DNA from: Dehalococcoidia bacterium
GTDB taxonomy: Bacteria > Chloroflexota > Dehalococcoidia > UBA2979
Reading direction: 5' to 3'
Length of the DNA stretch: 64,000 nucleotides
Assembly (NCBI GenBank): GCA_965262725.1
Contig: OZ253555.1
Span: 2,016,001 to 2,080,000 of the forward strand
In this document: piece after piece, positions 3,208 to 13,222 of the stretch
How the letters are laid out: each line of letters begins with the position of its first letter
Numbering within the stretch: position 1 is the first letter of the stretch
The notes under the pieces: model-generated
What the model was told of the DNA's origin: nothing
What the model saw: only the letters and a program-made list of their open reading frames with translations
Databases searched by the model: none
Translations under genes and position numbers: made by a program

Positions 3208-4533
3208 TCAGGCCGGGAGCGGTATCGCCCGTAGTCGCGCGAGCGCGGCTGCCAGCTGCTCTGCCCAGGGCCAGCGCTTCGGGAGGTGCAGAGTCCACCG
3301 CCGGGCAGAGCGGGTGAGCCGTCCGGCGAGAGAGAAGTAGCGTCGCCTGAGCGTCCTGGTCGTCACGATCCCCTCGCCGAGCCCGAGGCGTGCCGTCCAG
3401 CGGGCGAGGTTGTGCGCGATCACCTGCACCGCGAGCCACGCCGCGTTCGCGGCGAAGCGGCCCGAGGGGAGATGGTTCAACCCGACGCCGTACTTGAGGT
3501 CGCGGATCGCGTTCTCGATCTCGGCGTGACGGCGATGGTCGGCCTCCAGCTCCATCATCTCCCCCGCGCGGTTGGTGATGAAGGCGTGGTAACTGTAGTC
3601 CACGAAGAGCGCGAGCTGTGAGCCGGGCGTCGGCGTGACGCGCCGCACGATGAGCCGCACCGCAGTGGCGTCTCCCGTGTGCTGGAACGGCGTGTAGGTC
3701 GTCTCGGCGACAGCGGCGCCGCCCGGCAGCCAGTACGGGATCGGCGTCCAGTCCTCTTCCGGTATCGCCTCGATCAGCCGGCGTACGTTCGGCTGCTGCC
3801 GAATAGTGATTGAGAAGCGGACATCCTGCTTGCGACAGACGGCGACGACAGCGTGGTTGTAGAAGCCGCTGTCGGCGCGCACCGTGAGCTGCCCGCTCGC
3901 CCCGGCGTCGCGCACCCGCGCCACCGTCTCACGCAGGAAGTGTGCGGCCCCCCGAGCGGTGTTGGCACGGCCCCCGCGCAGCCGGGCCATCAGCACCTCA
4001 CCCGTCCCGGCCGCCACCGCGAGCAGCGGGTGATAGCCGCGCACGCCCGTGTAGCCGTGGTGCCGGGCGCCCTCCTTGGCGAGGCCGTAGGTCTCGCAGA
4101 GCGTCGAGTCGAGGTCGATGGTGAACGGCGCCGCGCCGGGTCCCGCCCCGGCCGCCCAGCTGCGGGCGAGCAACTCGCGGCTGACGCGGTCGAGCTGACG
4201 GACGTGGCCCCAACGGAAGCTGCGCAGAAACGTCCCGAGGGTGGACGGCGCCTTCACGGTGCAGCCGAGCACGCGCCCGGCGCCGCCTGAGCGCATGGCA
4301 TCGGCGTCATCGATGCAGTCGCCGCCCGCGAGCGCCGAGGCGATGAGAGTCATCAGCTTGTCGCCGACGTTCGCCCGCCCCGCTGCGTCACCGAGGTCGA
4401 GGTGGGCGTCTGCCAGTTCACGGAGGCCGAGCCGGCCAGCGAGCGTGGCCGGGAGCAGCAGGCCCGCGTGGTCCACGAGGCGGTCGTCGTCGAAGGCGAT
4501 GTGTATCCGGTCGGGGCTGCTCGTTGGTAGCAT
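3208..4533 (-). CDS. IS1380-family DDE transposase
   Basis: Motifs TIDLDST, GYHPLL, VRADSGF and HRRHAEIENAIRDLK. Differs from copy B at 7 amino acids. Confidence 0.95.
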   Translation of the reverse strand: MLPTSSPDRIHIAFDDDRLVDHAGLLLPATLAGRLGLRELADAHLDLGDAAGRANVGDKLMTLIASALAGGDCIDDADAMRSGGAGRVLGCTVKAPSTLGTFLRSFRWGHVRQLDRVSRELLARSWAAGAGPGAAPFTIDLDSTLCETYGLAKEGARHHGYTGVRGYHPLLAVAAGTGEVLMARLRGGRANTARGAAHFLRETVARVRDAGASGQLTVRADSGFYNHAVVAVCRKQDVRFSITIRQQPNVRRLIEAIPEEDWTPIPYWLPGGAAVAETTYTPFQHTGDATAVRLIVRRVTPTPGSQLALFVDYSYHAFITNRAGEMMELEADHRRHAEIENAIRDLKYGVGLNHLPSGRFAANAAWLAVQVIAHNLARWTARLGLGEGIVTTRTLRRRYFSLAGRLTRSARRWTLHLPKRWPWAEQLAAALARLRAIPLPA

Positions 4534-5152
4534 CGAATGGGGTGCGCCAGGCTAACTGGTGCTTGGGCAGGAGGTGCAAGTCCTCTACGGCGAAGGAGCA
4601 AGCCACTCCACGCGGTTCCGCGAGCCGTGCGCGACTCGTCGCGAGGCGAGCCGTGAAGCGTCGGCAGCGGGGTAGGCGGGCGGAGCTATTGAGCATCGAA
4701 AGATGCATAATCCGGAGTGCCGAGGCTTTCCCATTGGTCGAAGGCAACACCGGCGACGGCGCTTCTGGCGAGCCGTCGTCGGGCTCTGCGGTGTCAAAGA
4801 ACTCACGCACGTCTGCACGTCCAGCACCGGGACCTCATATGGATGCCTCGGTTGTCAAGCCCCGTCCAGCGGTACTTGAACGTCCGGTCTGCGGCGGCGG
4901 CGGTCGCGCGAGGATGACGACTCCGGGGTGGCGAAGGAGGGATGAGCGGGAATTGTTCGACGTTTTGTCATTCTCAGAGGTATAGCCAGAAGTTGTGGAT
5001 GAGCCAGGAGAGAGAGGCGGCGTACCCTCCCTGAGTCAACAGGAGTGGCCGGGAAGTGTCGATCGCCAGGGTCATTGAGCCACGCGTCGCCACGGTCATT
5101 GGACCACCCGGGACGCCGGTAGGCGGCTTGATATCAGTGAGCGTCTAGCGCG

Positions 5153-5926
5153 TCAATCACCTCCCGTCTGCGCCTCGAGCAGGGCGCGGTGCGGCGAGAG
5201 CCGCTGGCGGTAGCTATCGCCCTCGATCACGATCTGGTAGCTGGCGTTCGCGAGCCGGTCGAGGGCGCTGTTGCCGAGGATCGGGTCGTCGAAGAGACCC
5301 AGCCATTCCTCCACGGCGCGGTTCGAGGTGATCACGAAGCTCGAGCTGCGGTGGCGCCCGATGACCAGCTCGTAGAGGTCGATGGACTGCTGCGCGCTGA
5401 GGCGATGGAGCCCGAGGTCGTCGAGGATGAGCAGGTCGGGCGCGAGGAAGCTTCGGAAGACCTTCTCGGCCGAGTGGTCGACGCGGGCCTGCGCCATCTC
5501 GCGGAAGTAGTGGTCGGCCGGGGCGAAGCGCACGGTGCGTCCGGAGCGGACGGCTGAGTAGCCGAGCGCCTGGGCTAAGAAGCTCTTGCCGACGCCGACG
5601 GGGCCGACGAGCAGGACGTGCTCGCGGCGGTCGAGGAAGTGCAGCGAGAAGGCGGCGTCGAGCAGGCGGCGGTCGAGCCGGATGGCGGCCGCCCAGTCGA
5701 AGTCCTCGAGGCGGCAGAGCTGCTCGAAGCCGGCCTGGCGCAGGCGCAGCTCCAACCGCCCGTGGTCGCGGCGGCTCACCTCGTCGACGAGCAGGATCTG
5801 CAGGAAGTCCGCGTAGTCGAGGTGGTCGCGCCGCGCGAGGGCGATGCGCTCGGGCAACGTGTCGAGCATACGGCCGAGCTTGAGGCGCTTGAGCAGCGGA
5901 CGGAGGTCTGAGGTGGTGGCGGTCAT
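5153..5926 (-). CDS. istB: IS21 helper ATPase IstB
   Basis: Walker A GPVGVGKS, Walker B LLILDDLG, ITSN and SALDRL motifs. ATGA overlap with istA. Confidence 0.95.
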   Translation of the reverse strand: MTATTSDLRPLLKRLKLGRMLDTLPERIALARRDHLDYADFLQILLVDEVSRRDHGRLELRLRQAGFEQLCRLEDFDWAAAIRLDRRLLDAAFSLHFLDRREHVLLVGPVGVGKSFLAQALGYSAVRSGRTVRFAPADHYFREMAQARVDHSAEKVFRSFLAPDLLILDDLGLHRLSAQQSIDLYELVIGRHRSSSFVITSNRAVEEWLGLFDDPILGNSALDRLANASYQIVIEGDSYRQRLSPHRALLEAQTGGD

Positions 5927-7503
5927 CGTGGTGCTCCTGTCGGGGTCTGCGTGCGGGACTGTGCGAAGACGGAGCCCGAGTGGGCGAAGCGCCCCGGAGG
6001 CGGCGGCAGCTCGGGCTGGTCTGGGGTGCTCTCCTGGTCGAGGGCCTCGACGAGGATGCGCTCGAGGCGGCGCACGTCGATGAGGTCGACCTCGAGCGCG
6101 CGGCGGCAGGCGGCGTCGAGGCGGTCCGGGGAGTAGCGCTCGGCGAGGCGCAGCAGCTTGTGGCCCTGCCGCAGCTTCGCCCAGGGCAGGGAGCCCTCGA
6201 AGAGACGCTCGGCGTAGGCGCCCACGGCCTCCCCCAGCTCGGCGGCGCGGCGCTGTATCCAGTCGGGCGCCCGCCTGGTGTAGGGGGTGAGCTCGGCCGG
6301 GTAGTCGTTCGGGTCGGTGGCGCGGCCGCCCCGGCGCTGGCGCGGGTGGACCTTGATGAGCTGACCGCGGTGGTAGATGCGCACCAGCTTCGAGCCGAGC
6401 TGCACCTCGACCTTCTGGCGGGGCGGGCAGGCCGTGGACGGCACCGAGTACAGCGCGTACTGGCAGGCGATGTGGTGGTCGGGATGGACCGTGGCGGTCC
6501 GCCAGTCGGGGACCTCGTAGGGCTCGCCGTCCCAGGGAGCGAGGAGAGGGAGCTCCTCCTCCCGGAAGACCTCGAGCGGCCGGCGGCGGGTCGTGCCGTG
6601 GATGCGCTGTCCCGCCACCTCCAGGCACCAGCTGCGGGCGGCGGAGCGCAGGTCGACGACGTCCCGGAAGTCGCCGCCCTTGAAGAGGCGCTCGCGCACG
6701 TAGGGGATGCTGCGCTCGACGCGCGGCTTGTCGCGGGGATGACGCACGCGCGCGGGGTCGGTGATGAAGCCGCGGTGGCGGGCGTACTCGAGGAAGCCCC
6801 GCGTGAAGCGCGGGTGCAGCGCGTCGGCCCCGGCGACGGCGGCCGGGAAGTTATCGATGACGAGGTAGCGGGGCACGCCCCCGAAGAAGGACCAGGCCTC
6901 CTCCAGGCCCTCGATCACAGCGTCCAGCTTCTGGCTGGTGGTGGGCCACACAAAGCAGTGGCGGGAGTAGCGCCAGACGACGACCAGCGCCCACACCGCG
7001 CGCCGGCGGCCGCTCTCGGGGTCCCGGATGAAGCCGAGGCGGCCGAAGTCCATCTCCGCCACCTCGCCCGGCGGCCCGTCGTCCATGCGCACGGTCGACG
7101 GCAGCCGGTGGCGCCAGCCGCGGCGCCGGATGAAACGCCGCAGCGTGGTGTAGGAGACCTCGCAGCCTCGTCCGGCGAGGAGCTCCTGGATGCGCGTCAG
7201 TTGCAGGCGGTCGGTCTCAAGCCAGCGCTCGATCTGCTCCGCCCAGGGCGAGAGCAGCTCTTCGCTCGGCGCCTCGACCTGCCGCGGGCCGGAGAGGCTC
7301 AGCGTCGCCAGCGCGGCGAGCTGCTCCTCACTCGGCTCGGGACCGTCAGGTGTGAGGCCGGCCGCTTCGGCCGCGTCGATGTAGCGGCGGACCGTCTGAC
7401 GCGACAACCCCATCCCGCTGGCGATGCGGCGCTGGCTGAGCCCCGCCTGCCAGCGACGAATGATCTCCTGAATCTCCACCCCGTGTACCTCCCGGTAGGC
7501 CAT
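5923..7503 (-). CDS. istA: IS21 transposase IstA
   Basis: N-terminal HTH, PGEVAEMDFG, YLVIDN, PRDKPRVER and YSVP motifs. Confidence 0.95.
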   Translation of the reverse strand: MAYREVHGVEIQEIIRRWQAGLSQRRIASGMGLSRQTVRRYIDAAEAAGLTPDGPEPSEEQLAALATLSLSGPRQVEAPSEELLSPWAEQIERWLETDRLQLTRIQELLAGRGCEVSYTTLRRFIRRRGWRHRLPSTVRMDDGPPGEVAEMDFGRLGFIRDPESGRRRAVWALVVVWRYSRHCFVWPTTSQKLDAVIEGLEEAWSFFGGVPRYLVIDNFPAAVAGADALHPRFTRGFLEYARHRGFITDPARVRHPRDKPRVERSIPYVRERLFKGGDFRDVVDLRSAARSWCLEVAGQRIHGTTRRRPLEVFREEELPLLAPWDGEPYEVPDWRTATVHPDHHIACQYALYSVPSTACPPRQKVEVQLGSKLVRIYHRGQLIKVHPRQRRGGRATDPNDYPAELTPYTRRAPDWIQRRAAELGEAVGAYAERLFEGSLPWAKLRQGHKLLRLAERYSPDRLDAACRRALEVDLIDVRRLERILVEALDQESTPDQPELPPPPGRFAHSGSVFAQSRTQTPTGAPR

Positions 7504-7689
7504 CGCTGCTCCCTCCGCTGGGGATGCAGGCGATGGTGGCCGTACCGGCGGCCCGAGTGGTCAGACCCCCCGGAGGGGTGGCTCAATGACCTTGGCGAAG
7601 TGGCACATAGACCCTGGCGATCTCGCCGTTTGCTGGTCTATAGATCCTGGCGATTCACACGGGAAGCCGGCCGGGGAGGAGTACGCCGG

Positions 7690-8967
7690 ATGTTGAGGAT
7701 AGTCCATGAGGGAGGCGAGCGGGAAGCGGGGCCGGGGACGCAGGTCGGACTGGACGAGCTCTGCCGCATGGCCGCCCAGGAGATGCTCGGGGTGGCGCTG
7801 GAGGCCGAACGGCAGGCCTACCTCGAGCGCCACGCGGGCGCGGTCGATAGAGAGGGCCGCCGCGTGGTCGTCGGCAACGGCTACGCCCGCGCGAGAGAGA
7901 TCACGACCGCCGCGGGACGGGTCGCCGTACAGGCGCCGCGCGTCGACGACCGCCGTCCCGGCGAGCGCTACATCTCGGCGCTTCTGCCGCCCTACATGCG
8001 GCGCTCGCCCAAGGTGACCGAGGTGTTGCCGCTGCTCTACCTGCGCGGGCTCTCGACGGGCGACTTCCTGCCCGCCCTGTCGGCGTTCTTCGGCTCGGGG
8101 GCGGGGCTCTCCGCCTCGACCGTGGGGCGGCTCACGGAGGCGTGGCAGGCCGAGCACGAGCGCTGGCAGCGACGCAGCCTGGCCGAGGTCGACTACGTCT
8201 ACCTCTGGGCGGACGGCGTCCACTTCACCGTGCGTCTCGAGGAGGACCGGCTCTGCTGCCTGGTGCTGGTCGGGGTGCGCCCGGACGGCCGCAAGGAGCT
8301 GGTGGCCGTGCAGGACGGCTACCGTGAGGACACCCAGTCCTGGCTCGACCTGCTGCGGGACCTGCGCGAGCGGGGCATGCGCGACCCCGAGCTGGCCGTC
8401 GGCGACGGGGCGCTCGGGTTCTGGGCGGCGCTGCGGGAGGTCTTTCCCCGGACCCGCGAGCAGCGCTGCTGGGTGCACAAGACCGCGAACGTCCTGGCGG
8501 CGCTGCCCGAGCGCGTCCAGGGGGAAGCGGCGCGGGCGCTCCACACCGTCTCCGGAGCCGCGACGCGCGCCGGGGCGCTGGATGCGGCGCGCGCCTTCGC
8601 CGGGCAGTTCGCGCAGTGGCCGAAGGCGACAGCGAAGGTCGCCGACGACCTCGAACGGCTGCTCGCGTTCCACGACTTCCCGTCCGAGCACCACGTGCAC
8701 CTGCGCACAACGAACCCGATCGAGTCCACCTTCGCCACGGTCCGGCTGCGCCAGCGCGTCACGAAGGGCGCCGGCTCCCGGTCGGCGGGACTGGCGATGG
8801 CCTACAAGCTGCTCGACGCGGCGCAGCAGCGCTGGCGGCGGGTGAATGCCCCGCATCTCGTCGCCGTCGTCCGGGCGGGCGGCGTCTTCGTCGATGGCGT
8901 CCTACAGGAACGAGCCGTCAGCCCGGATGCGAGCGACGATGCACGCCACGGGAGGTACGCCGCCTAA
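7690..8967 (+). CDS. IS256-family (mutator) transposase
   Basis: ATG at 7690 after GAGGAG. Motifs YLWADG, AVGDGALGFW, QRCWVHK and RTTNPIES. Confidence 0.95.
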   Translation: MLRIVHEGGEREAGPGTQVGLDELCRMAAQEMLGVALEAERQAYLERHAGAVDREGRRVVVGNGYARAREITTAAGRVAVQAPRVDDRRPGERYISALLPPYMRRSPKVTEVLPLLYLRGLSTGDFLPALSAFFGSGAGLSASTVGRLTEAWQAEHERWQRRSLAEVDYVYLWADGVHFTVRLEEDRLCCLVLVGVRPDGRKELVAVQDGYREDTQSWLDLLRDLRERGMRDPELAVGDGALGFWAALREVFPRTREQRCWVHKTANVLAALPERVQGEAARALHTVSGAATRAGALDAARAFAGQFAQWPKATAKVADDLERLLAFHDFPSEHHVHLRTTNPIESTFATVRLRQRVTKGAGSRSAGLAMAYKLLDAAQQRWRRVNAPHLVAVVRAGGVFVDGVLQERAVSPDASDDARHGRYAA

Positions 8968-9203
8968 CTTGCCCTGGCCAGCGATCCACAACTCTTGACG
9001 ATATCTCTCATTCTCATATCCGCGGGTTGCCAGTGGCAGAGCCGCATGACCCTTCTTCGTCAGGAGCAGGCGCATTCTGATATCGCGGGTTGGCGACGCG
9101 AAGCGTCGTTGCCGCATGGTTCCGTCGCGCAGTCTCCGAAACGTAGTCCCGCTTATCCGTCCTTCACCGCCCCCGGAGTCGAGGTCCCCGCCCTCCGCGG
9201 CCA

Positions 9204-9337
9204 CCTCCGCTGCATGCTCCTCACTCGCGGCGATGCCTGAGAGCCCCTGCTCCGTCGGGCGGATGTGCTCATCCGTCATCTCGACCCTCTGCAGGTAGCT
9301 GCCGAAGGCCGCCTGGGCGCCCTTCTCCTCGAAGGAG
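9204..9337 (-). pseudogene. 134-bp diverged internal fragment of the IS110 transposase
   Basis: Aligns without gaps to 10087-10220 (SFEEKGAQAAFGSYLQRVEMTDEHIR versus SFEEVGDQAAFDGYLQRVEMADEHIR). Confidence 0.85.
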
Positions 9338-9586
9338 ATGACGACTCCGGGGTGGCGAAGGAGGGATGAGCGGGAATCACTCGACGTTGTGTCACTCTCA
9401 TAGTCGCGGGTTGCCAGTGGCAGAGCCGCATGACCTTTCTTCGTCGGGAGGGGGCGCCGTCTGGGAACGCGGGTTGGCGACGCTTCGCGTCGTTGCCGCA
9501 TGGTCCCGTCGCGCGATCTCCAGAATGTGGTCCCGTTCATCCGTCCTTCACCGCCCCCGGAGTCGACGTCTCCGCCCTCCGCGGCC
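9337..9586 (-). ncRNA. bridge/seekRNA-like cassette A
   Basis: A long outer stem (9343-9375 with 9531-9564) encloses two similarly built internal loops. GGTCCCG (9502-9508) and CTGGGA (9461-9466) match the target CGGGAC-CT-GGGA. CTCATA (9397-9402) and GACC (9432-9435) match the donor junction. Confidence 0.8.
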
Positions 9587-9631
9587 GGTCTGTCCTCCTC
9601 TCCGTCCGCTCCCTGTTCGTGGCCAGCCGGC

Positions 9632-10744
9632 TCAGGCGGCCTGCCGCCGCTGGTCAGCGTGGGTGCGCAGCACCGCCCAGATGGCGGCGAGCAGCTCCCG
9701 CGCCACGGCCACGACGGCGACCTGCGACGGCTTGCCTCGCTCCTTGAGATGCCGGTAGCGCCGGGACATCCGGGAACCGGTCTTGTCGGCCATCGCGACC
9801 GCCCAGCCCGGCTGGCCCTCCCGCCGTCTGCGCAGCGGCGCCCCGACCCGGTACGGGCGGATGCTGTGCCACCCCGCCTCGACCAGCACGCGCCGGACGT
9901 GGGTGTTCCCCGTCTTCGTGATGCCGCCGCGCCGCGTCCGCGGGCCTGAGCTGTGCTCGCTCGCCACCAACCCCACGTACGCTGCCAGCTGGTCGGGGCT
10001 TCCGAATCGCGTGATGTCGCCGAGCTCGCCCAGGATCGTCATGGCGGTGACCGTGTCGATGCCGCGGAAGCAGCGGAGGAGTCCCGCCTCCGGCGCATAC
10101 TCCTCACTCGCGACGATGTCTGAGAGCCTCTCTTCCATCAGGCGGATGTGTTCATCCGCCATCTCCACGCGCTGCAGGTAGCCGTCGAATGCCGCCTGGT
10201 CGCCCACTTCCTCGAAGGAGAGCGAGCGCAGCCAGCACCGGTGCTCTCGGGTCCACGTAGACTTACCATAATGGTGGCCCGAGCGCAGCAGGAACCCCGA
10301 CAGTTGCACCTGGGCCGTCTTGCGGGCCGCAACGGCGTCCTCGCGCCCACGGGTGAGGTTGCGCACAGATTCCTGCCGCTCAGTCGGCTGGTGCACCTCG
10401 GTGAGCAGTCCCGCGCGCAAGAGATGCGCCAGGTTCCGCGCGTCGCGGCGGTCCGTCTTGACGCGGTCTCCCGGCTTTGTGGGGATCAGCGCCGGCGCGA
10501 TGACGCGGCAGTCGATCCCCTTCGCATCGAGAGTGCGCTTCAGCCCGAACCCGGTCGGGCCCGCCTCGTAGCAACAGACCACGGAATCCCCGGCCTCGCG
10601 GCGCAGTCGCCGCGCCAGCGCCGCCACGGACGTCGGCTCGTTGGCGAGCTGCCACTCTTCGGGCTTCTTCTCCCCGTGCAGAACGGAGACGTTGATCGTC
10701 CGCGCGTGCACGTCGAGGCCCACGTATAGCTTCGTCTGGTCCAT
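9632..10744 (-). CDS. IS110-family DEDD transposase/recombinase
   Basis: Motifs YVGLDVH, CYEAGPTG, KTDRRDA, GIDTVTA and SEHSSG. Confidence 0.95.
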   Translation of the reverse strand: MDQTKLYVGLDVHARTINVSVLHGEKKPEEWQLANEPTSVAALARRLRREAGDSVVCCYEAGPTGFGLKRTLDAKGIDCRVIAPALIPTKPGDRVKTDRRDARNLAHLLRAGLLTEVHQPTERQESVRNLTRGREDAVAARKTAQVQLSGFLLRSGHHYGKSTWTREHRCWLRSLSFEEVGDQAAFDGYLQRVEMADEHIRLMEERLSDIVASEEYAPEAGLLRCFRGIDTVTAMTILGELGDITRFGSPDQLAAYVGLVASEHSSGPRTRRGGITKTGNTHVRRVLVEAGWHSIRPYRVGAPLRRRREGQPGWAVAMADKTGSRMSRRYRHLKERGKPSQVAVVAVARELLAAIWAVLRTHADQRRQAA

Positions 10745-11305
10745 CTGGTCTGCCCCCTACCCCTTCCATGTTCCGGTCCGGTTCCGCTCCGATGTTGCAC
10801 TCGGAACAGAAACCGACACCGGTTCTCAAGGTGTCGAGGCATCCATAGGGTCTGGGAGGGCTCGGCCTTGTCCCTGCGTGTTGCCACGCCGGGACCGCAA
10901 CGGAAAGGGCGATTCCGTAATCCGTTGACGCACGAGGTCGAGCAATCAGATCCGGCCATAGTAGTGATGAGGGCGGCGAACAAAGAGGAGTAGACACCCT
11001 CGGCGGAGTCGACGGAGCGAAGGGCCGGACCGGAGGGGAAGCTGGCGAAGCCCGGCACTGGCGGGACACTGCGCCCGCGTTTGGTGTCACTCGGGCCACC
11101 CGGCTACGGCACCTCTTGGGTGCCGTCTGACCTGACGGAGGAGCCGTATGCGTTAACGCGCACGTACGGATCTGTCCGGGGGGCGGCCGGCAACGGCCGT
11201 CCCTACCGGAATTGCTCCCTGTGGCTGTGACGTGATTCGTTCAAAAACCATTGTCCCAGCTACAGCGGAGCACCCAACCGCAGACGCTCGCGCACTCTTC
11301 TTCGG

Positions 11306-13222
11306 TTCGCGGTAGGGATGCCGGTTGCCCGGCACCCCCCGCACAGATCCGGACGTGCCCTCTCGGGCATCCGGCTCCTACCTCAAGTGCGTGACGGCAA
11401 ATCGCTCCGCAGGCCACGGGTGAAGGATGGAGATTCGGGGCCAGTGTTTCTGGCACAGGGCAAGGATGCGCTCCCACGTGAAACGGTCGCGCTGCGACCG
11501 CCGTCGGAGAACGCGCAGCCAGAGCCGCTTCACGAAACGAACAAACTGCGTGAGCGCCGGCGAGCTGGTCGGCACCGCGTAGTAGCCAAGCCACCCACGC
11601 AGTACCCGCCCCAGCCACTGCCCCGTCGTCACGGGGTTGTCGTGCATGCGCCGCCACAACTCGGCCTTGATGGCCTTCAGCGTCCGGCGCATCCGCTTCG
11701 CAACGGGCTTGCGCCCCAGCCCGAATCTCCCGTCGCGTCGGGTCCGGCAGTAGTGCGTCATGCCGAGAAAGTCGAACGTCTCCGGTCGGCCCTCCCCGCG
11801 CTTCCGCCTGTTCGCCAGCGCGAACCTGCCGAACTCAAGTAGACGGGTCTTCTCCGGGTGCAGCTCCAGCCCGTAGGCCGCGAACCGCTCCCGGAGTGCC
11901 TCCATGAACCGCACCGCATCGCTGCGGTGCTGGAACCCCAGGACGAAGTCATCGGCATACCGCACGATGTACGCCTCGCCCCGGACCTCCCGCGGTCGCC
12001 ACTCGCGCGCAAACCAGTCGTCGAGCACGTTGTGCAGGTACACGTTCGCAAGCAGCGGCGATATCGGCGCCCCCTGCGGCATCCCCCGCACGAAATCGAC
12101 TTCCGGCTCCGCGTCCATGACGCCGACGCTCAGCCACTTTCGTATCAGGCGCAACACCCGCTGGTCCCCGATGCGCATCTCCAGAAACGACATCAGCCGC
12201 CCCCGGTCGATGCTGCCGAAGAACTCCCGGATGTCCACCTCGACAATCCAGCTGACCTTGCGCCGTTCGACCGCGTAGGCCAGTGCGTCCAGCGCGTCAT
12301 GCGCCGAACGCCCCGGCCTGAAGCCATGCGAGAAGCCGTAGTAGCCCGACTCGTAAATCGGGTTCAAAAGATTGTCCACCACCGCCCGCTGAACGATCTT
12401 GTCCTCCAGCGAGACGATACCGAGCGGCCGTATTCCCCCGTCCGGCTTGGGTATCTCTACCCGCCTGACGGGCTTCGCCCGGTACGCTCCACGGTGTACG
12501 CGGCCATGCAGGTCGAGCAATCGCTCGTCCAGCCCGTCCCCGTATTCTCGCCACCTCACCCCGTCCACGCCCGGAGCCGCATCCCGCTTCAACGCGAGAT
12601 ACGCCTCCCGCAGCGCCTCCGGCGTGATGTGGTGCAAGAGCGCGGTGAGTTTCTCTCCCGGCTTCCGTTCCACGAACTGCCGTATCCTCTCCGCTCCGGG
12701 TGACACCGCACCCCGACTCTGCGTCCGGACCGTGCCGGTGCTTTGAGGATTCCTCTCGGTTGGGGCCCTTTGCTCCAGCGACTCCGCCGGGGCTCGCGCC
12801 CCCTTGTTCGCCGCCTTCATCGCTCGTACGGCCCCATCAGACTGCTGCGCATCGTTCATCATCGGCTACGGTTTACGTCCCTTCCCGACGCGGTCCCGGC
12901 GTACGACTCGTCGGGACAACGCGCAGCTCTCCCAAGTCCCGGCGATAGACGTGTGTGCGTGCATGGGGTCTTCGACACCGTGGGGCCCGACCACGACTCG
13001 CCAGTAGCGCCGTCGCCGGTATTGCCTTCGACCAATCCAAGAGCCTCGGCACCCCAAATGGCCCTTTCGATGCTCATTAGCCCCGCCCGCACACCCCGCT
13101 GCCGACGCTTCACAAGCCGCCTCGCGACGACCCGCGCACGGCTCGCGGAATGACATGAGTGGCTAGCTCTTTGCCATAGAGGACTTCCACCTCCTGCCTA
13201 CTCGCCAGTTAGCCTGGCGCTC
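11306..13222 (-). ncRNA. group II intron encoding an RT (1917 nt), inserted 10 bp inside the IS1380 left end
   Basis: Starts GAGCG and ends ...CCCTACCGCGAA. DV is GAGCCGGATGCC...GGCACGTCCGGATC. EBS1 TGGATT pairs with exon GATCCA and EBS2 AGGGC pairs with GCCCT. Removal restores CCCTGATCCA-CCGAAGAAG. Confidence 0.92.
11378..12862 (-). CDS. ltrA: group II intron reverse transcriptase/maturase without an endonuclease domain (true start may be further downstream)
   Basis: Motifs APGVDG, IPKPDGGIRPLGI, GFRPGRSAHDAL, PQGAPISPLLAN, RYADD and FDFLG, plus an X domain (RGWLGYY). Confidence 0.95.
   Translation of the reverse strand: MMNDAQQSDGAVRAMKAANKGARAPAESLEQRAPTERNPQSTGTVRTQSRGAVSPGAERIRQFVERKPGEKLTALLHHITPEALREAYLALKRDAAPGVDGVRWREYGDGLDERLLDLHGRVHRGAYRAKPVRRVEIPKPDGGIRPLGIVSLEDKIVQRAVVDNLLNPIYESGYYGFSHGFRPGRSAHDALDALAYAVERRKVSWIVEVDIREFFGSIDRGRLMSFLEMRIGDQRVLRLIRKWLSVGVMDAEPEVDFVRGMPQGAPISPLLANVYLHNVLDDWFAREWRPREVRGEAYIVRYADDFVLGFQHRSDAVRFMEALRERFAAYGLELHPEKTRLLEFGRFALANRRKRGEGRPETFDFLGMTHYCRTRRDGRFGLGRKPVAKRMRRTLKAIKAELWRRMHDNPVTTGQWLGRVLRGWLGYYAVPTSSPALTQFVRFVKRLWLRVLRRRSQRDRFTWERILALCQKHWPRISILHPWPAERFAVTHLR

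Follow-up and report, generated by a model that had tools for sequence, protein, structure and literature searches.

A 64,000-nucleotide (nt) stretch of a Dehalococcoidia bacterium genome (contig OZ253555.1, positions 2,016,001 to 2,080,000 of the forward strand; the whole stretch is hereafter called the window) contains, at positions 4836-10853, an insertion sequence (IS) of the IS1111 type, in which a single recombinase gene is followed by two predicted bridge/seekRNA cassettes, designated A and B. An earlier note on this DNA had interpreted the two cassettes as a natural guide array, giving one recombinase two target specificities. Here, we compared 13 copies of the element and its relatives, and found that cassette A fits the target DNA at the insertion sites and that cassette B fits the ends of the element. 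We consider it somewhat probable that this is a chimeric element, in which A would supply the target loop and B the donor loop of a natural two-RNA bridge system.

The genome that includes the window (G000) carries four copies of the element, namely, c1, c2, c3 and the window copy (c4), and a metagenome-assembled genome of the same genus (G003) carries nine. The left flank was readable in all 13 copies and the right flank in 12. Homologues of the transposase were detected in five genomes at E <= 1e-80 in a sample of 401 genomes, and in three genomes at E <= 1e-40 among the 61 nearest genomes. The relatives used for comparison, with a transposase identity of 47-61%, come from three other genomes of the same class (G008, G371 and G295); four sequence-distinct relatives at five loci (L012, L018, L060, L062 and L061) have readable ends, and L060 and L062 have identical guide arms. 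A covariance model, R1, was built from A, B and two relatives. The parts of the window copy are as follows, the element being read on the minus strand.

4836-10853, minus strand: the entire IS1111-type element, with the CT/AG core counted once and the nested IS256 and IS21 elements included; the same ends are present in three other copies in this genome and nine in G003
10847-10853, minus strand: left terminal extension of 7 nt, AGACCCT on the element strand, the first two bases (AG) being the core common with the target
10835-10846: left subterminal inverted repeat of 12 base pairs (bp), the perfect complement of 4839-4850
9632-10744, minus strand: intact transposase/recombinase gene of 370 amino acids, with Pfam domains PF01548 and PF02371
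9343-9564, minus strand: cassette A, the 222-nt core of the duplicated unit 9337-9586, with a long outer stem, the target loop and then the donor loop (R1 score, 260.9 bits)
9203-9336, minus strand: fragment (134 nt) of a diverged transposase gene, 83% identical to 10084-10221 over 138 nt and corresponding to approximately nt 524-661 of the intact gene
9017-9180, minus strand: 5' part of cassette B, with the outer stem, all of the target loop and the portion of the donor loop that precedes its 3' arm
4919-4976, minus strand: 3' part of cassette B, with the halves that close the donor-loop stem and the outer stem
4836-4918, minus strand: right end after cassette B (83 nt), with a conserved TTGACA, the 12-bp repeat at 4839-4850 and a 3-nt extension at 4836-4838

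The element at 4836-10853 belongs to the IS110 family, IS1111 group. All the features of this group were found: DEDD transposase domains (DEDD_Tnp_IS110, PF01548, 63.7 bits, E 2.2e-17; Transposase_20, PF02371, 75.3 bits, E 5.2e-21; both above their cut-offs), the 12-bp subterminal repeat, the 7-nt and 3-nt extensions, and a downstream non-coding region, which extends over ~760-880 nt from the stop codon to the right end in intact copies. In published IS1111 elements, the subterminal repeats likewise measure 11-13 bp, the left and right extensions are 7 nt and 3 nt, respectively, and the guide RNA is encoded downstream of the gene (PMC11187229); the predicted bridge RNA of the group has also been placed in the right end (PMC11208160). 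The CT core was read at both element boundaries (4834-4835 and 10852-10853), and insertion was site-specific, without duplication beyond the core dinucleotide, at CC-AG-GTC(CC) in the 13 copies. In contigs from other samples the precise empty site was present, reading CGGGACCT and then directly GGGAGGG. The family assignment and the boundaries given in the earlier note were thus upheld by the Pfam domains, the ends, the CT cores and the 12-bp repeat. The TTGACA of the right end is common to the right ends of relatives too; no obvious -10 partner for it across the junction was seen by eye, and no sigma-70-like promoter was found in the intact linear copy by a scan that is not informative for this phylum.

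Next to the gene, the two cassettes were recognized as tandem structured units on one scaffold, as had been claimed before. In a repeat search, 9008-9202 was 87% identical to 9392-9586, and 4913-4979 was 91% identical to 9337-9403. Each cassette was folded against 200 shuffles, B being represented by the intact B of another copy, and both folded much better than these controls, with z = -6.59 for A and -5.90 for intact B, and with none of the 200 shuffles equal to the cassette in either case. The intact B of other copies scored 255.2 bits with R1, and the layout recurred in all 13 copies. The predicted structure consists of 67 pairs, 5 of which show compensatory changes, a count that is partly circular since the structure was derived from the same sequences. 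The two cassettes differ at 27 of 222 positions, of which 25 lie among the 88 unpaired positions and 2 among the 134 paired ones (Fisher p = 1.4e-9). This concentration of the differences in unpaired positions indicates that both functioned as structured RNAs during their divergence. When 4000-12000 was scanned with Rfam 15 at E <= 1, group II intron models were the only matches, a result that has weight for the cassettes only if Rfam includes a model for IS1111-type bridge RNAs.

The guide arms were placed within the loops as listed below, and the positions agree with those assigned earlier.

9502-9510, minus strand: 5' arm of the A target loop, pairing with one core base and the right flank GTCCCG
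9460-9467, minus strand: 3' arm of the A target loop, pairing with the left flank TCCC and the core AG
9432-9440, minus strand: 5' arm of the A donor loop, with a mismatch at left-end position 4 in this genome and perfect in the G003 copies
9397-9404, minus strand: 3' arm of the A donor loop, with a mismatch at right-end position 5 in all copies
9118-9126, minus strand: 5' arm of the B target loop, predicting the right flank GTTCCG, a flank found in no copy
9076-9083, minus strand: 3' arm of the B target loop, predicting the left flank ATATC and the core AG, a flank found in no copy
9048-9056, minus strand: 5' arm of the B donor loop, perfect against one core base and the first 5 nt of the left end
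9013-9020, minus strand: 3' arm of the B donor loop, perfect against the last 5 nt of the right end and the core, and cut by IS256 in the window copy

In A, in B and in the cassettes of the relatives, one of the two loops has arms for both target strands next to the core, the target of B being a predicted one, and the other fits the joined ends. The donor arms of the relatives pair with one core base and 5 nt of the left end, and with 5 nt of the right end and the core; their target arms vary between relatives, each fitting its own flanks. This covariation of the arms with the DNA of their own element is computational evidence that the loops are guides. Between A and B, the target arms differ at four guide positions. 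The 5' target arm of A and B spans one core base only, whereas those of L012, L018 and L060 span both; the arms are of equal length, and the pairing register is shifted by one nucleotide.

We then analysed the sites occupied by the element. The arrangement of A, fragment and B was present in all four copies in this genome and in all nine in G003, with B intact in 12 of the 13. The left flank ended in CC-AG in 13 of 13 copies, and the right flank started with GTC in all 12 that were readable, continuing as GTCCC in 10 of them and as GTCTCG and GTCCTG in the others. These copies occupy 11 different contexts, the nine G003 sites being all distinct. The insertion sites show that the target loop of A chooses the site CC-AG-GTCCC on the element strand, that is, CGGGAC-CT-GGGA on the plus strand of the window, and the match of this loop to the real insertion site that had been reported for the window copy extends to every readable flank. 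In this genome, three copies fill the only three copies of one group II intron subtype lacking an open reading frame (ORF), and the fourth lies in a diverged intron. A clean natural test of specificity is provided by homologous intron sites in which the core has changed from CT to TT (CGGGAC-TT-GGGAG): none of 14 such sites was occupied, against 4 of 5 with the core CT. Fifteen intron copies of the abundant family were examined, one of them in the window near 12933, and the empty CT copy lies near 1683005. The observation is not a matter of chance: the same layout recurs in 13 copies, and the arms of the relatives change together with their own flanks and ends.

Some copies show features of their own. 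Copies c2 and c3 (G000:C1:1952025-1958603) are identical in sequence and lie in inverted orientation, left end towards left end, at a distance of 2.36 kb. Copy c2 shares its intron subtype with c1 and c4 but has the longer fragment variant of c3, a pattern that suggests independent insertion or gene conversion. In the recombinase gene of the window copy, at ~9900-10130 (element positions 728-959), there are ~9 clustered substitutions absent from the other copies; elsewhere this gene is mosaic-like, with alleles partly of the local copies and partly of the G003 copies. The ninth G003 copy (L009, G003:C2:1407694-1413908) carries ~4.5 kb inserted near the 3' end of the recombinase gene, so that its transposase match ends at residue 358 and its cassettes lie 4.5 kb further on.

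The donor loops of the two cassettes behaved differently from each other. The donor arms of B were perfect against both present ends in all four sequence variants of the element. The donor loop of A was mismatched at left-end position 4 in this genome and at right-end position 5 in every copy. The earlier statement that the donor loop matches the circle junction in both cassettes therefore held for B, but not for A, which in the window copy has one mismatch in each arm. At the core-adjacent position of the 3' donor arm of A, three copies have G, c1 has A and the nine G003 copies have C, the element end itself having G. Among the four variants, cassette A has only two variable columns, both of them donor guide positions and one with three alleles, for comparison with ~33 variable sites in the 1113 nt of the recombinase gene. 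The chance that three of three changes fall on A donor guide positions is, as a rough figure, ~3e-4.

With regard to the origin of the second cassette, B most likely represents what is left of a second, related element, fused in together with its right end. This view derives from the fragment of a diverged transposase gene lying between A and B, and from the single-cassette organization of the relatives. The fragment, which the earlier note does not mention, is located directly upstream of B in all copies. In c2 and c3 it is 244 nt long and 78% identical to gene positions 415-657, and 13 nt of post-cassette sequence remain after A; in c1, the window copy and G003 it is 123 nt shorter, and the same 123-nt skip was found in the contigs of another sample. 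At both fusion junctions, short similarity between the joined sequences was noted by eye. Model R1 detected a single cassette downstream of the gene at all eight relative loci in G008, G371 and G295. A parent element with B only was not found in G000, G003, G008, G371 or G295 with this model, every B adjoining an A, and a metagenome scan with a degenerate pattern of the conserved target-loop scaffold gave no matches, and so neither a B-type parent nor further copies, in a collection that evidently lacks this type of cassette. On the evidence of these sequences, A and B are not an evolved array. Units with differing targeting arms are present, as in an array, but two classes of insertion site were not observed, and none of the eight relative loci has two cassettes; the earlier proposal of a natural guide array is not supported, given this and the gene fragment between the cassettes.

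One relative, L064 (G371:C1:1081951-1083141), has an internally deleted transposase gene and has kept its cassette, and so resembles the type of remnant from which B and the gene fragment seem to derive.

Taken together, we interpret the element as a fusion of two parts. The complete part would be formed by the left end, the DEDD recombinase gene and cassette A; the captured tail, consisting of the transposase-gene fragment, cassette B and the right end, would have replaced the right end that originally belonged to A, and the fusion would now move as a single unit. The recombinase tetramer would take its target loop from A and its donor loop from B, both being carried by a single long transcript or, as in engineered split bridge RNAs, by two separate RNAs. 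The window copy has its B donor loop cut by IS256, and its movement would depend on B RNA from the three intact copies. We infer this division of roles from the perfect fit of B to both ends, from the mismatched and drifting donor loop of A, and from published data on IS621 and IS622. For IS621, donor mismatches were reported to be generally poorly tolerated (PMC11208160); for IS622, target and donor loops were reported to be functional as separate RNAs, and the tetramer may use two RNA molecules (10.1101/2025.05.14.653916).

Several points weigh against this interpretation. The RNAs of both cassettes are predicted, and so is the assignment of target to A and donor to B; of the 20 runs, from 10 studies, listed as containing this stretch, none was an RNA run. 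Single donor mismatches were found at two of the five relative loci (L018, right-end position 4; L061, left-end position 4), which implies that the donor loop of A may still work. Cassette B is complete, and a B RNA in use should send some copies to B-type sites, of which none was seen. The retention of B is no sign of selection, as the 13 copies are 98-100% alike and represent only four sequence variants, the nine G003 copies being identical. The polymorphism argument is thin, given three inferred changes. The data on mismatches and split RNAs were obtained with enzymes of the IS110 group (IS621 and IS622), a subgroup other than that of the present IS1111-type enzyme, and target-loop-only or donor-loop-only RNA alone was reported to give no circle formation or integration (10.1101/2025.10.25.684509).

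The alternative that survives best, although we regard it as rather unlikely, is that B is a passive relic. In that case A would do both jobs, its donor loop tolerating one or two mismatches, and B would be kept only since it lies between A and the usable right end. That B was brought in by rearrangement is evident from the transposase-gene fragment, the high similarity of the copies marks them as recent, leaving no time for decay, and the target loop of B is used by no insertion. In addition, the window copy with its broken B retains intact-looking ends and an intact recombinase gene, and the donor mismatches at two single-cassette relative loci point in the same direction. However, the ends fit the donor arms of B perfectly and those of A imperfectly in every sequence variant, and the only variable sites of A are donor guide positions. 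Furthermore, the G003 element is present at nine sites, as nine identical copies, despite two mismatches among the five positions of the right-end arm of A, one of them beside the core. Donor mismatches were reported to be poorly tolerated in IS621 (PMC11208160).

A role of B in targeting was assessed from the sites that it is predicted to recognize. Its 13-nt target, ATATC-AG-GTTCCG, occurs once in this genome, where 0.14 occurrences are expected for a 12-mer, and the site is empty; one more site with one mismatch is also empty. Both are located inside a 245-bp repeat family of four copies (G000:C1:2410970-2411215, 3384791-3385032, 328868-329118 and 1509059-1509271). The exact site is flanked by the short inverted repeat GAGCCC...GGGCTC. 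Searches of the repeat against Rfam (E <= 0.1) and for tRNAs gave no match; of the adjacent ORFs, only one, situated upstream of one copy, had a Pfam match, to a tyrosine recombinase. Loose B sites, all unoccupied, number 18 in this genome (9-mer) and 6 in G003 (10-mer). In G003 there is no site within one mismatch of the B target, and thus its nine insertions test loose B specificity only. Of the 13 copies, none was at a B-type site, with neither a TC-AG left flank nor a GTTCC right flank. When flanks were tabulated with two classes expected, as the earlier note had suggested, all those readable were of the A class (13/13 left and 12/12 right).

These observations make it improbable that both cassettes are active as complete bridge RNAs, with one recombinase inserting at both A and B sites, and the claim of two target specificities is not borne out by 13 copies without a B-type insertion and an empty exact B site. 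We regard as just as doubtful the proposal that B is a live second guide, the element normally using the target loop of A with the donor loop of B and, in addition, inserting at B's own ATATC-AG-GTTCCG. The completeness of B, its good fold and its perfect donor loop are in line with the first of these readings, as is the single exact 13-nt target in the genome, at a hairpin-like spot of a four-copy repeat, the kind of place that IS1111-type elements target; the nine G003 insertions, in a genome where a near-exact B site is absent, say little about strict B specificity. Against this, A-type insertions accept loose matches and yet the loose B sites are empty, so that equal activity of the two cassettes is unlikely. 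Equal use would give none of ~11 independent events at B sites with a probability of ~0.01-0.03, as a rough estimate. Rare use of B's own target may occur.

An assembly artefact, that is, a tandem layout created by a collapsed or mis-joined repeat, was rejected and can be dismissed with near certainty: repeats of 88% identity can confuse assemblers, but identical junctions recur in four copies here and nine in an independent assembly, and contigs from three of four runs (X6, X7 and X11, each belonging to its own study) run through B and the fragment into the start of A, with 0-2 differences.

The IS1111-type element is itself both interrupted and enclosed by other mobile elements, of which the following were annotated.

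4977-9007, plus strand: IS256-family element in the donor loop of B, with a PF00872 (Transposase_mut) match (E 9.3e-53), terminal inverted repeats and an intact transposase ORF at 7690-8967
5057-7659, minus strand: IS21-family element within IS256, with istA at 5923-7503, istB at 5153-5926, inverted repeats and a 7-bp duplication at 5050-5056/7660-7666
4577-4803, plus strand: domains 1-4 of the host group II intron (Rfam RF02005, 166.2 bits, E 4.4e-49)

The IS256-family element is bordered by a 9-bp target duplication (4968-4976 and 9008-9016). The IS21-family proteins contain rve and Mu-transposase C-terminal domains, and IstB_IS21 (E 5.3e-53); this nested IS21 is absent from the description in the earlier note. 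On the outside, the IS1111-type element sits between intron domains 1-4 and domain 5, the latter at 11139-11212 with a score of 39.3 bits for RF00029 against a cut-off of 40. The window thus shows, at 3208-11253, five mobile elements nested one inside the other, in the order DDE insertion sequence, group II intron, IS1111-type element, IS256 and IS21. The outermost DDE insertion sequence, of which there are ~15 copies in the genome, has its transposase at 3208-4533 (PF13701), and the ORF-less group II intron inside it extends over ~4542-11212. A second group II intron, at 11305-12862 on the minus strand, lies head to head with the first; it contains a reverse-transcriptase ORF (PF00078) and a domain 5 of 39.9 bits, the cut-off being 40.

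Bridge/seekRNA elements have been described as the combination of a single recombinase and a single two-loop RNA. The element analysed here provides a natural example, in 13 copies, in which the target and the ends are matched by separate cassettes. Should the proposed division of labour be true, loops of different RNAs would cooperate in nature, beyond the engineered split bridge RNAs, and an element could survive a change of its ends or of its target by borrowing the cassette of a relative. If B is a live guide as well, capturing a relative's cassette would allow such elements to acquire or change targets while remaining mobile. With B as no more than a relic, the locus would represent a well-documented chimeric insertion sequence and little more. 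In the full-text literature consulted, a 2026 review included, no natural element was found to carry a second bridge/seekRNA; the bridge-RNA predictions listed per element in the supplements to PMC11208160 and PMC11187229 may include such cases.

Among known systems, the element resembles the IS1111 elements with a downstream seekRNA, such as ISEc11 (Siddiquee et al. 2024, PMC11187229), in its DEDD transposase, repeats, 7-nt and 3-nt extensions and downstream guide region, and in the lack of extra duplication. Unlike these, it has two tandem complete cassettes that differ in their target arms and are separated by a transposase-gene fragment; both are ~222 nt long, with a long outer stem that encloses the two loops. 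The available part of that paper describes no element with two guide RNAs, and mentions 26 ISfinder entries with long non-coding regions at both ends. The relatives in G008, G371 and G295 share the scaffold, the loop order, the rule by which arms fit flanks and ends, and the TTGACA of the right end, but have one cassette each. The bridge RNA of IS621 and IS622 (Durrant et al. 2024, PMC11208160; Perry et al. 2025, 10.1101/2025.05.14.653916) is similar in its two loops, in the CT core and in its pairing with the target and the joined ends, whereas those elements belong to the IS110 group, and each carries one cassette, with its RNA located upstream of the gene. The split form of that system was engineered; here, a division of roles between two natural cassettes would be involved. 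The nearest precedent is ISPpu9 with ssr9 (PMC12288879), an IS110-family element with an extra small-RNA module downstream of the transposase gene, which originated as a separate unit and is able to move as one. In the available text, ssr9 has end boxes of its own on both sides, is dispensable for transposition and is not described as a bridge RNA; the extra module of the present element, in comparison, is a full bridge-RNA cassette without internal element ends.

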